Position numbers and translations under genes: made by a program
The notes under the pieces: model-generated
The model's input: only the letters and a program-made list of their open reading frames with translations
What the model was told of the DNA's origin: nothing
Databases searched by the model: none
Shown here: positions 4,769 to 14,759 of the stretch, in pieces
How the letters are laid out: each line of letters begins with the position of its first letter
How positions within the stretch are numbered: the first letter of the stretch is position 1
Source of the DNA: Bacteroidia bacterium
Lineage (GTDB): Bacteria; Bacteroidota; Bacteroidia; Bacteroidales; VadinHA17
Assembly: GCA_026391215.1 (NCBI GenBank)
Contig: JAPLDX010000058.1
Coordinates: 2,887-66,886 of the forward strand
Reading direction: 5' to 3'
Length of the DNA: 64,000 nucleotides

Positions 4769-5215
4769 ATGGATTTGAGTAACTTAAAACCTGCAAAAGG
4801 ATCGGTGAAAAAGAACAGGCGTTTTGGCCGCGGACAAGGTTCTGGAAGAGGAGGAACATCCACCAGGGGCCACAAAGGCGCTAAATCCAGATCAGGTTAT
4901 AGTAAGAAGATCGGATTTGAAGGAGGTCAGATGCCCCTTCAGAGACGAGTTCCGAAATACGGTTTTAAAAATGTAAATCGCAAGGAATATAAAGGAATTA
5001 ATATAGGTGTTCTGCAGACCCTTGCTGAAAATAATAAGCTGGAGATAATAAATCCGGAAGTGCTTATTTCAGCCGGGTTTATTTCTAAGAATGCGCTGGT
5101 GAAGATACTTGGCAAAGGGACACTCGAAAAGAAACTCGAAGTCCATGCCCATGCTTTCAGCAAATCAGCTGTAGCAGCAATTGAAGCCAAAAACGGAACC
5201 GTTGTAAAACTGTAA
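4769..5215 (+). CDS. rplO: 50S ribosomal protein L15
   Basis: MDLSNLKPAKGSVKKNRRFGRGQGSGRGGTSTRGHKG... is L15. Confidence 0.97.
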   Translation: MDLSNLKPAKGSVKKNRRFGRGQGSGRGGTSTRGHKGAKSRSGYSKKIGFEGGQMPLQRRVPKYGFKNVNRKEYKGINIGVLQTLAENNKLEIINPEVLISAGFISKNALVKILGKGTLEKKLEVHAHAFSKSAVAAIEAKNGTVVKL

Positions 5216-10807: not shown

Positions 10808-12091
<1,284 letters not shown>

Positions 12092-12097
12092 TACACG

Positions 12098-12212
12098 TAC
12101 CCACCCCCTTTGTCCCCCTCCTTGCTGACGCAAGGAAGGGGATATTATGTTGATATACAAATACATAAGCCCCCTTCCTTACGAAGTAGAGAAGGGGGTT
12201 GGGGGACGGGTA
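12098..12212 (+). repeat. GC-rich nested inverted-repeat element (outer stem plus two internal hairpins)
   Basis: Outer arms TACCCACCCCC (12098-12108) and GGGGGACGGGTA (12201-12212). Hairpin 12115-12141 is CCCCTCCTTGC-TGAC-GCAAGGAAGGGG. Hairpin 12170-12198 is CCCCCTTC...GAAGGGGG. Confidence 0.6.
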
Positions 12213-12227
12213 TATGGAGCTGAGTGT

Positions 12228-12259
12228 AGTTATTAACAATTTGTTAATAACTTTTGTTT
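12228..12259 (+). terminator. AT-rich Rho-independent terminator (probable true eno terminator)
   Basis: AGTTATTAAC-AATTT-GTTAATAACT perfect stem followed by TTTGTTT. Confidence 0.6.
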
Positions 12260-12313
12260 ATATCGGGTTTACAACAAGGACTTGTTTTCATTGTATTTAT
12301 TTGATCCTTGAAG

Positions 12314-12321
12314 TATATTTG
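12314..12321 (+). promoter_or_regulatory. Candidate -7 box (TATATTTG) driving the structured RNA
   Basis: Exact TAnnTTTG match ending 9 nt before the first G of GUGAGCG at 12331. Confidence 0.45.
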
Positions 12322-12330
12322 ATCTATCGG

Positions 12331-12820
12331 GTGAGCGATAAAAGGCTGCTCGAAAGATGTGGAACCGGAAAAGGTTACTTAAATGAAACACAATCCGGTT
12401 CGGTCAGGCCTTCGGGTCTGCGCATCAAGAGAGCCGAAGCACGGATGAAAGGACCACAAGTCCCGGATATCCGGAAGGTTGAAGAAAACCGGAAACGTTC
12501 TTTCAGAGACTGAGTCTCAGGGCTTCAGAAAACAAAGGGTCTCGGCCCGGAGTGATCTGAAACTGGAGCCATAACCCTCGGGAAATGGCACCGGAGCCTG
12601 AAGGACACTTCGTCCAGGAAAGTCCAGCCGAAAGGTAGGAACAAATGGACAGCCGGAAGGTTCTGCCTTAAACAGCAAAGCCGGAAGGCCCAGGGTTGCA
12701 GGAATCCCGAGTAATCGGGAGAATGCAGACGGTCAGAATAACAGTAATCCGACGCCGTATGAGGCCTCGGCCACAAACGGTGAATGGGAACTAATCTTAG
12801 GAGTAGTTCCCATTATTGTT
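12331..12820 (+). ncRNA. Unclassified large structured RNA candidate (about 490 nt) with a group II intron D5/D6-like 3' module
   Basis: - No credible ORF in the interval.
- G+C is visibly higher than in the flanks.
- At least 8 hairpins are capped by GNRA or UUCG loops that are canonical only on the + strand.
- CGCCGUAUG...AC...ACGGUG lies at 12753-12782, followed by a hairpin and U-tract. Confidence 0.6.
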
Positions 12821-12822
12821 TT
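12785..12822 (+). terminator. Hairpin plus U-rich tract ending the structured RNA (alternatively a D6-like helix)
   Basis: UGGGAACUA-(10 nt loop)-UAGUUCCCA followed by UUAUUGUUUU. Confidence 0.6.
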
Positions 12823-12838
12823 ATATACCCCTATCCTT

Positions 12839-12846
12839 TATCTTTG
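12839..12846 (+). promoter_or_regulatory. Candidate -7 box (TATCTTTG) for the UbiD-family gene
   Basis: Exact TAnnTTTG match 21 nt upstream of ATG 12867. Confidence 0.45.
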
Positions 12847-12866
12847 ACCTTCAATCTGTTTATATC

Positions 12867-14759
12867 ATGGCTTATACGGGACTTTCAGATTTTATCGCTG
12901 ACCTTGAAAAACATCAGGAACTTCATCGGATAGTGACATTTGTCGACCCTGTACTTGAAATAACCGAAATAACCGACCGGGTAACCAAAAATAATGGGAA
13001 AGCACTCCTCTTTGAATCTACCGGCACCAGATTCCCGGTCCTCATAAATGCCTATGGATCAGATACAAGAATGGCAATGGCCCTTGGAAGGCGTAACCTT
13101 GATGATGCCGCAAAGGAAATAATTAAACTATTTGAGATTATTACCAACTCTACTGGAAGCGTTTTTAATTCACTACCCTCGCTGATGACTATCTCAGGAT
13201 TCCTGCCTTCACGCAGAAGCGGAAAAGGCAAATGCCAGCAGGTAGTACACATCAATCCTGATCTGACCATGCTGCCTGTTCTGAAATGCTGGCCTCATGA
13301 CGGGGGACGTTTTATCACCCTTCCGATGGTACATACATTCCATCCGGAAACAGGTAAAACAAATGTCGGTATGTACAGGATGCAGATACTTGATGCAAAG
13401 ACCACTGCAATGCACTGGCAGCTTCATAAAACAGGAGCCTCCCATTATGAAGCCTGGAAAAAAGCCAGGCGTAAAATGCCTGTCTCCGTAGCTCTCGGAG
13501 GTGATCCTGTATATGCTTATTCATCAACAGCCCCGCTGCCCGAAAATATAGATGAATATATCCTTGCTGGATTTCTCAGGAAGAAAAAAGTTAAGTTGGT
13601 CAAATGCATTACCAATGACATTTTTATTCCCTGTGATGCTGATATAATTATTGAAGGCTATGTAGATCCTGCCGAAGAACTTGTATGGGAAGGCCCTTTT
13701 GGCGACCATACCGGATTCTATTCGCTTGCAGACTGGTATCCAAAGTTTCATGTTACCTGTATAACTCATTCAAATAGAGCTGTATATCCTGCTACTGTTG
13801 TCGGTATACCACCGCATGAGGATGCCTGGCTGATAAAAGCAACCGAAAAGATATTCCTTGCTCCTGTTAAGCTGGCAGTACAGCCTGAAATTGAGGACTT
13901 TCACATGCCGGCAGCAGGAGTTGCACATAATCTGGTCGTGGTAAAGATAAAAAAGACATACCCCGGTCAGGGGAAGAAAGTCATCAGCTCCCTGCTTGGA
14001 ACGGGTCAGATGATGTTTACCAAGTACCTTGCGGTTGTCAGCGGAAATATAGATATCAGGAATTACAGAGAACTTCTTTTGCATGTCCTTGAAAATACTG
14101 ATTTCAGGTCAGATCTTTTATTTGCCTCCGGCCCCCTGGATGTGCTTGACCATTCATCTGACACTTTTGCCATGGGAGGCAAGCTTGGTATTGATGGCAC
14201 TGAAAAGCTAAAGGAGGAACTATCCGGAAGATCATCAGGTACTCCGCATAAAGTATCACTCTCCACGGAATTAATAGTCAGCCTGAAGGAAAAGATTCTT
14301 GAAACAAACAATAACGTCAACATTATTAATGACTTGCCTGTTGTCATTGTCGGATTGAATCAGAATGAAGATGCTTTATCATCTGAAAGATCAAGGAAAG
14401 GATTCAGGGGAATTGAAACCAGAGATTTTTTCAGGCTGATCCTGGCAGTCGATAGCACCGTGGATGTGGACAATATGTCCGCAGTTGCATGGCAGATACT
14501 TGGAAACTCTGATCCTCAGCGTGATATAGAAACAATTTCGGATAATACAATTTTCATTGACGGAACCATAAAATTAAATCACGGAAGAAGATTCCCCCGC
14601 AAATGGCCAAATGTTGTGTGCTCCGATGAAGACACTATCAGAAAAACCGATCAGAAATGGGAATCGCTGGGAATAGGATCATTTATCCCGTCTCCATCGC
14701 TGAAGAATTCTGTATTACTTTGTGAAGGGGCTGATGAAGTCATCATCAGGAGGAAATGA
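12867..14759 (+). CDS. UbiD-family (prenylated-FMN dependent) decarboxylase, menaquinone/ubiquinone-type
   Basis: MAYTGLSDFIADLEKHQELHRI...LFES...MYRMQILD...WQLHKTGA... is a UbiD fold signature. ATG 12867 is preferred over the TTG at 12816, which lies inside the RNA terminator. Confidence 0.85.
   Translation: MAYTGLSDFIADLEKHQELHRIVTFVDPVLEITEITDRVTKNNGKALLFESTGTRFPVLINAYGSDTRMAMALGRRNLDDAAKEIIKLFEIITNSTGSVFNSLPSLMTISGFLPSRRSGKGKCQQVVHINPDLTMLPVLKCWPHDGGRFITLPMVHTFHPETGKTNVGMYRMQILDAKTTAMHWQLHKTGASHYEAWKKARRKMPVSVALGGDPVYAYSSTAPLPENIDEYILAGFLRKKKVKLVKCITNDIFIPCDADIIIEGYVDPAEELVWEGPFGDHTGFYSLADWYPKFHVTCITHSNRAVYPATVVGIPPHEDAWLIKATEKIFLAPVKLAVQPEIEDFHMPAAGVAHNLVVVKIKKTYPGQGKKVISSLLGTGQMMFTKYLAVVSGNIDIRNYRELLLHVLENTDFRSDLLFASGPLDVLDHSSDTFAMGGKLGIDGTEKLKEELSGRSSGTPHKVSLSTELIVSLKEKILETNNNVNIINDLPVVIVGLNQNEDALSSERSRKGFRGIETRDFFRLILAVDSTVDVDNMSAVAWQILGNSDPQRDIETISDNTIFIDGTIKLNHGRRFPRKWPNVVCSDEDTIRKTDQKWESLGIGSFIPSPSLKNSVLLCEGADEVIIRRK

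Follow-up and report, generated by a model that had tools for sequence, protein, structure and literature searches.

Large, highly conserved and intricately folded RNAs are rare in bacteria. To our knowledge, every such class described earlier either serves a fundamental function, as in the ribosome, RNase P, transfer-messenger RNA (tmRNA) and the group I and group II introns, or is an open mystery with a surprising structure, as are OLE, ROOL, GOLLD and raiA. The last four are large "ornate" bacterial non-coding RNAs, the function of which is not readable from sequence (PMC12286853, PMC9723947, PMC10861870). Here, we analysed a 64-kb stretch of DNA from a Bacteroidia bacterium (contig JAPLDX010000058.1; hereafter the window, which is the reference sequence for RNA numbering and in the positions of which coordinates are given), and found that the spacer between the enolase gene eno and a UbiD-family gene is a free-standing gene for a large folded non-coding RNA, on the + strand at 12326-12822. 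Like OLE, ROOL, GOLLD and raiA, this RNA has a gene of its own, is hundreds of nucleotides (nt) long, is lineage-restricted, and combines many covarying helices at multi-way junctions with invariant single-stranded nucleotides. It differs from them in that it matches none of them in sequence or structure and belongs to Bacteroidota rather than to Bacillota, Actinomycetota or phages; and whereas oapA adjoins OLE, the new RNA has no conserved partner gene and is not phage-associated. Its nearest counterparts by kind are OLE, ROOL, GOLLD and raiA, and the nearest in architecture is RNase P RNA. The RNA appears to be a new RNA class or family, "new" being meant at the level of the RNA family and not of biochemistry.

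The initial annotation of the window had proposed a search for homologues and for covariation, and both were found. With the UbiD protein as the anchor, 80 loci were fetched from bacterial genomes taken at one per species (L001-L080), and nhmmer with the window RNA as query detected a full-length homologue in 50 of them at expect values (E) from 1e-116 to 1e-51. These 50 homologues lie, in every case, on the same strand as ubiD and immediately upstream of it, and all 50 host genomes are metagenome-assembled genomes (MAGs) of uncultured Bacteroidales or Bacteroidia. Metagenome contigs were scanned with an exact 31-nt pattern, the invariant 5' motif GAGCGATAAARGNNNGCTNNNANNANNNGGA, which yielded at least 120 loci; among the matches listed, about 105 are typical (400-570 bits, same synteny) and about ten are divergent. 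RNA homologues are thereby placed on more than 110 metagenome contigs, and altogether the RNA is conserved in about 170 or more independent loci. In an alignment of 125 sequences with less than 96% mutual identity (A4), 63 of the 497 positions do not vary at all and 241 are at least 90% conserved. Nearly half of the positions of an RNA of about 500 nt are thus held at this level while the neighbouring proteins have diverged to about 60% identity: in the 50 RNA-bearing species, UbiD is 57-73% and enolase 82-89% identical to the window proteins.

The + strand of the gene folds with -191 kcal/mol (z = -5.7 relative to shuffled sequences), compared with z = -3.8 for the minus strand. RNAalifold on the 125 sequences gave a consensus fold of 140 pairs in 27 helices, in which 93.8% of the alignment cells are paired, as against 28-43% when the 3' partners are slid by 1-3 columns. 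At 88 of the 140 pairs both sides have changed in a compensatory manner, and none of 500 column shuffles matched any of the observed pairing measures. The strongest pairs in mutual information with average product correction are the nested helices of the consensus; the same statistic gave no convincing non-nested pair that would indicate a pseudoknot, the candidate partners being invariant. Many conserved G-U pairs would become A-C on the minus strand, for example 12331/12748 and 12335/12745 (an invariant GU), which identifies the + strand as the RNA strand. The dense structure and the + strand orientation that the initial annotation had read from the window alone are therefore borne out by the fold energies, by conservation in about 170 loci, by covariation and by the G-U pairs, together with the location of the promoter and the U-tract at the 5' and 3' ends, respectively.

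The boundaries of the gene are marked by sequence signals on both sides. In the window, eno ends at 12091 and the UbiD-family open reading frame (ORF; 630 amino acids, with Pfam UbiD_N, UbiD and UbiD_C) starts with the ATG at 12867, leaving a spacer of 775 base pairs (bp). The G+C content is 0.50-0.56 over about 12350-12800 and 0.35-0.42 in the flanks, in agreement with the contrast noted initially for 12331-12820. A Bacteroidota -7 promoter box, TATATTTG, lies at 12314-12321 (+); across the 125 aligned homologues its TAnnTTT never varies and its final G is conserved to at least 90%. Helix P1, which closes the RNA, starts 4-5 nt after this box in every aligned sequence, so that the primary transcript should begin essentially at P1; judged by Bacteroides promoter geometry, the start would fall within 1-2 nt of it, and a sigma-A -7 box of the Bacteroidota type would drive the gene. 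With its 5' end placed by this promoter spacing, the gene extends over about 497 nt, from 12326 to the end of the U-tract at 12822. At the 3' side, a hairpin with a U-tract (12783-12822) forms an intrinsic terminator, and it is followed by a separate -7 box, TATCTTTG (12839-12846, +), which marks the 3' boundary of the unit and probably belongs to the UbiD-family gene. Between the terminator and the ubiD start, 103 of 135 loci have an exact TAnnTTTG and a further 30 have TAnnTTT, at a median distance of 28 nt upstream of the start codon, while the gap from the terminator to ubiD ranges from 17 to 450 nt. All three signals had been pointed out in the initial annotation, and its view of an independent + strand transcription unit is strengthened by the separate ubiD box, by the variable gap and by divergent homologues in other gene contexts, which also carry the RNA promoter box.

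Searches of Rfam 15 covered the window at the gathering threshold and, at E<=10, a 901-nt segment (12050-12950), a 96-nt segment (12735-12830), 13 homologous loci and 5 long-spacer loci. They gave no family match inside the RNA, including group II intron, RNase P, tmRNA, signal recognition particle (SRP) and 6S RNA, and the models of OLE, ROOL, GOLLD, HEARO and raiA had no match in the window or in the 13 homologous loci. ARAGORN found no tmRNA or tRNA in the window. In the literature, no description of a large non-coding RNA of Bacteroidales or of a ubiD-associated motif was found; for a 2026 preprint on non-coding element mining (10.64898/2026.09.22.753630), a term count showed Bacteroidota once and enolase, UbiD and Bacteroidales not at all. 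Among the three options that the initial annotation had left standing, the null result of the all-Rfam search at E<=10, the homologues and the covariation favour a large non-coding RNA of no known class. The hosts, all of them uncultured, are anaerobic Bacteroidales of wetlands, sediments and sludge, which is why the RNA would have gone unnoticed; such environmental Bacteroidales are abundant, and their being uncultured explains how pipelines based on cultured genomes missed it.

In the consensus model, helices P1 and P2 enclose a large invariant internal loop and lead to a compact six-way junction, and two hairpins follow on the 3' side of P1. The 5' strand of P1 (12327-12332) pairs with 12747-12752; its pair 12329/12750 is AU in 93 and GC in 31 sequences, and 12331/12748 is GU in 63, GC in 50 and AU in 12. 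The 5' strand of the internal loop, GAGCGAUAAAA (12333-12343), is invariant in 125/125 sequences and in the distant ones too. P2 (12344-12347, pairing with 12731-12734) is supported by covariation, 12345/12733 being AU in 72, GC in 40 and GU in 10 sequences. The 3' strands of P2 and P1 (12731-34 and 12747-52 within 12731-12752) flank the near-invariant loop strand AGAAUAACAGUA, and the loop stretch AAUAACAGUA is invariant or at least 90% conserved. An AGUA/GAG arrangement beside P1 may be loop-E-like.

From P2, the six-way junction carries five arms, namely domain I, a central domain and domains III, IV and V. Domain I (12348-12434, helices 3-7) is a three-way junction in which 19 of 28 pairs have changed on both sides. 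It consists of P3 (12348-51/12431-34) with a stem at 12356-61/12421-26, a first branch at 12362-69/12394-401 capped by 12374-78/12385-89 with the loop CUUAAAUG, and a second branch at 12405-10/12415-20 with a cUUCGg cap. The central peripheral domain (12436-12611, about 170 nt; helices 8-20, which covary) is closed by GAAG at 12436-39 and CUUC at 12608-11. Its interior is wholly missing in L179 (331 nt) and L192, where the GAAG/CUUC helix is simply capped; L173 has a smaller interior, and L093, L119, L120 and L183 (534-555 nt) as well as L117 have larger ones, and the short variants lacking it measure 331-404 nt. Domain III (12612-12650, helices 21-22) has a GUCC/GGAC stem at 12612-15/12647-50 and a variable hairpin at 12622-27/12636-41, all six pairs of which have changed on both sides. 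Domain IV (12652-12689, helices 23-24) comprises a GC/GC pairing at 12652-53/12688-89, an internal loop CGGAAG/GGAAG and the helix 12659-66/12675-82; in helix 24, 6 of 7 pairs are compensatory. Domain V (12694-12730, helix 25) has a stem at 12694-99/12725-30 and an apical hairpin at 12705-20, the sequence of which varies among homologues. The stems proposed initially from the window are accommodated by this model for the most part. Covariation backs those at 12405-12420, 12362-68/12395-401 and 12624-39 and the variable hairpin at 12705-20. On the other hand, the supposed hairpins AGCC-GGAA-GGUU (12651-62) and GCC-GGAA-GGC (12680-89) turn out to be the two strands of the domain IV internal loop around helix 12659-66/12675-82, divergent sequences fitting the internal-loop model only, and the stem-loop GAGAC-UGA-GUCUC (12506-18) is specific to the window.

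Outside P1, 3' hairpin 1 (12753-12782, helix 26) has 11 pairs, of which 7 are compensatory. The second hairpin, AAUGGGAACUA...UAGUUCCCAUU (12783-12814), precedes the U-tract, and its stem GGGAA/UUCCC is invariant in 125/125 sequences; the hairpin and the U-tract are kept in divergent homologues as well. Since the stem is invariant, unlike those of ordinary terminators, and occurs once per locus, this hairpin would be a functional part of the RNA besides being its terminator. The idea that it is a general terminator motif of the genome was rejected, as the motif has a single occurrence in the 64-kb window and a single one per RNA locus. The conserved core of the RNA comprises P1 and P2 with the invariant loop, domain I, domains III-V and both 3' hairpins. 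Apart from this, a 16-nt direct repeat was seen inside the RNA, GGATATCCGGAAGGTT (12465-12480) and GGACAGCCGGAAGGTT (12647-12662); the first copy is absent from the family consensus, and the repeat is therefore probably window-specific.

By analogy with RNase P RNA and OLE RNA, we propose that the RNA probably acts in trans by virtue of its folded three-dimensional shape, either at the heart of a ribonucleoprotein (RNP) or as a ribozyme. It would work neither by base-pairing with mRNAs nor by cis-regulation of ubiD. The functional centre, a binding or active site, would be made up of the six-way junction and the invariant P1-P2 loop, and the invariant 3' hairpin could be a protein or tertiary docking element that also stabilises the 3' end. 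The central domain may act as a peripheral stabiliser, dispensable and thus able to be lost or expanded. Several points weigh against this proposal. No partner protein gene is conserved beside the RNA in the 4-10 kb of flanking sequence that was inspected around the loci, and no catalytic or ligand-binding motif was recognised in the RNA, so that the idea of an RNP or ribozyme acting in trans rests on analogy. The junction strands are invariant and thus lie outside the reach of covariation, and the ends of the RNA and its expression are deduced from the DNA. Throughout the main clade, the RNA directly precedes ubiD, even where eno has been lost, a constant adjacency that leaves some room for a functional link to ubiD. 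Finally, the family is certainly wider than sampled, because the metagenome scan demanded the exact 31-nt motif. A stronger form of the proposal, in which this undescribed large ornate RNA class has as its core either a natural ribozyme of a new kind or an RNA or RNP machine that assembles itself, like RNase P, OLE or ROOL, is put forward tentatively, and we consider it unlikely. The RNA offers a concrete target for structural and functional work.

The gene order around the RNA bears on a link to ubiD. In the window, the RNA has eno, the UbiD-family gene, a SpoIIE phosphatase gene and rplQ as neighbours, and the order rpoA-rplQ-eno-ubiD, in many cases with a SpoIIE-type phosphatase gene next in line, is kept widely in Bacteroidales, including lineages without the RNA. 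Nine outgroup loci (L054, L058, L059, L061, L063-L065, L069, L076) keep rpoA-rplQ-eno-ubiD with an eno-ubiD spacer of about 140-170 nt and no RNA; the shared synteny without the RNA indicates that it is an addition at a stable syntenic site in the RNA-bearing lineage. In a sub-lineage (L016, L057, L091, L109, L126, L153, L155), eno has been lost from the site and rplQ-RNA-ubiD is kept. The divergent homologues (L093, L119, L120, L183, L189, L179, L192, L117, L163) retain the promoter box, P1, P2, the core and the 3' hairpin AAUGGGAAC...GUUCCCAUU with its U-tract, and they lie beside guaB/IMP dehydrogenase, alaS, a fucosidase fragment, Nramp, a lysA-like gene, a PHP-domain gene, an S33 hydrolase gene or a thermolysin gene, with neither ubiD nor eno in the 4-10 kb flanks.

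One explanation of the position of the RNA is that it is a cis-acting leader of ubiD, a riboswitch or attenuator in which the fold responds to a signal, transcription being either terminated or read through at the 3' hairpin. The RNA stands directly upstream of ubiD on the same strand in all of about 135 main-clade loci containing both, loci lacking eno still keep it beside ubiD, and its terminator lies just ahead of the gene. In its location upstream of a metabolic gene on the same strand, its aptamer-like fold closed by P1, its terminator hairpin and its U-tract, it indeed resembles riboswitch and leader RNAs. However, it exceeds typical riboswitches in size about 3-5-fold, and the downstream gene seems to have its own promoter, with an exact putative -7 box in most loci and a near-match in nearly all others; the distance from the RNA to ubiD also varies, from 17 to 450 nt. 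In addition, no alternative pairing that could act as an anti-terminator was found for the terminator, the stem of which is invariant, outgroups have the eno-ubiD synteny without the RNA, and divergent homologues carry the same core and 3' hairpin beside unrelated genes. We therefore regard a leader function as improbable, and the option of an element linked to the UbiD-family gene, which the initial annotation had entertained, is not supported for the same reasons, namely the separate ubiD promoter box and the unrelated contexts of the divergent homologues.

A base-pairing regulatory RNA, that is, an antisense-type small RNA (sRNA) or a sponge whose conserved single-stranded segments pair with mRNAs such as that of ubiD, has about the same low likelihood. 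Two 14-nt segments of the RNA are complementary at 13 of 14 positions to the ubiD coding region of the window (12330-43 with 12890-903, and 12807-20 with 12987-13000). These target sites are not kept in the other 131 RNA-bearing loci, where site 1 reads GGTTTTATTACTGAACTC, GATTTTATAACACAGCTT and the like and site 2 reads ACCAAATCCGGAGG..., indicating that the complementarities are due to chance. Moreover, with nearly half of 497 positions at least 90% conserved in a covarying multi-junction fold, the constraint on the RNA is far above that on sRNAs that pair through a seed.

We also considered a highly diverged housekeeping RNA, such as RNase P RNA, tmRNA, SRP RNA or 6S RNA, that the Rfam models had missed. 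In size, in its closing helix and in the combination of a conserved core with a variable periphery, the RNA recalls RNase P RNA, and ACAGnAAYC near the 3' strand of P1 presumably resembles the E. coli sequence. The likeness to type A RNase P RNA (RF00010) extends to a helix that joins the 5' and 3' ends, a periphery that is lost or expanded, UUCG and GNRA caps, a core of 330-550 nt and very high conservation. On the other hand, the models of these RNAs had no match at E<=10 and ARAGORN reported no tmRNA; the P4 elements CR-I/CR-V, the P4 pseudoknot and the regions CR-I to CR-V as a whole are missing, the order of helices differs, and the new RNA has two extra hairpins 3' of P1. Bacteroidota normally have a canonical type A RNase P RNA, and the new RNA occurs in only some Bacteroidales lineages, being absent at the same syntenic site in sister Bacteroidales. 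Such an origin is accordingly very improbable.

Equally little credence is due to an RNA that belongs to, or derives from, a mobile or selfish element. The unrelated contexts of the divergent homologues, the insertion relative to outgroups with an eno-ubiD spacer of about 150 nt, and a group II intron adjoining the RNA at one locus (L136) would be in keeping with mobility. Each locus, however, has one copy of the RNA, its position is stable over more than 130 loci, no transposase, integrase or reverse transcriptase (RT) gene is adjacent, and no flanking repeats were seen. In blastn searches of phage and plasmid collections the RNA had no match, nor did its 5' motif in viral contigs.

The least credible explanation, and one we consider extremely improbable, is an ORF-less, domesticated ribozyme derived from a group II intron, with domains 5 and 6 (D5 and D6) at the 3' end, as the initial annotation had suggested. 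In the window, and there only, 12753-12782 reads CGCCGUAU...ACGGUG and resembles the lower D5 helix of class C introns (RF00029), with another hairpin behind it, the genuine CGC-type D5 in L136 being CGCCGUAUACG-UGAA-CCGUACGUCCGGUG, and GUGAG is present near the 5' end of the RNA. The letters of the D5-like module are thus there, but in the family it is an ordinary covarying hairpin, with the consensus CGCCGUnAGCnGC-UUCG-GUUGCAAACGGUG, a stem of 11-13 bp with one A-A mismatch, no 2-nt bulge and no GNRA loop (the loops being of the UUCG, CUCG or ACGG types), and the bases at the triad position vary from CGC to CAC and CAU in distant sequences. This hairpin lies outside the closing helix P1, there is no six-domain wheel, the D6-like hairpin has no bulged A, and GUGAG, which had been compared with the intron start GUGYG, sits in the P1-P2 loop and not at a splice site. 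Neither exons nor, among the neighbours, an RT or maturase ORF (optional, as some introns are ORF-less) were found, and the RNA has its own promoter and terminator; the absence of an RT, the non-GNRA loop, the lack of a bulged A in D6 and the promoter at the 5' end had already been raised against an intron in the initial annotation. At E<=10, RF00029 had no match on the 901-nt or the 96-nt segment or inside the RNA of the 13 homologous loci, whereas as a positive control it scored the true intron end L136:1225-1135 at 38.6 bits (gathering score 40). The initial annotation had made the link to group II introns depend on a score of RF00029 over 12753-12822, and with no such score the link fails.

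The intron of L136 is an observation in its own right. At L136:1135-1225 on the minus strand lies a genuine group II 3' end, in which the D5 has a CGC triad and a loop of the GAA type and the D6 carries a bulged A. Inserted between eno and the RNA, some 190 nt upstream of the latter, it is truncated by the end of the contig. It looks like a class C intron sited after a terminator and unrelated to the RNA itself.

A protein-coding gene was ruled out by the lack of a period-3 signal in column variability (power 0.43 times the mean), of Pfam matches and by openness in several frames at once. The two ORFs in the spacer (12199-12513, + and 12525-12776, -), which had been dismissed as not credible from the start, have no Pfam match, and on the minus strand about 2.6 reading frames are free of stop codons at the same time, an artefact of composition because the + strand of the RNA is purine-rich (31% A, 29% G). 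Among 5.8 billion sequences, translations of the RNA match only 15 close "hypothetical proteins" (P0001-P0015), one of them annotated in a MAG at NCBI (V1903_00240). These 15 are mis-calls of gene finders across the RNA gene, and public annotations currently place such spurious "hypothetical proteins" over it.

Two further elements were observed in the flanks of the RNA gene. In L083, the stretch from the RNA terminator to ubiD (about 5030-5146) has three tandem copies of about 24 nt, GGGTGTAGGAACGTTGCATGCATG-like, with a palindrome at the end, and lacks the usual ubiD -7 box; this tandem motif may be a small repeat element. In the window, a very stable multi-hairpin element (-75.7 kcal/mol, z = -8.0) directly follows eno at 12088-12262. 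In it, G/C-rich hairpins at 12114-41 and 12171-98 are nested in a long stem at about 12097-12215, after which comes an A/T hairpin at 12228-52, and the element may represent the terminator or terminators of eno or a repeat element.

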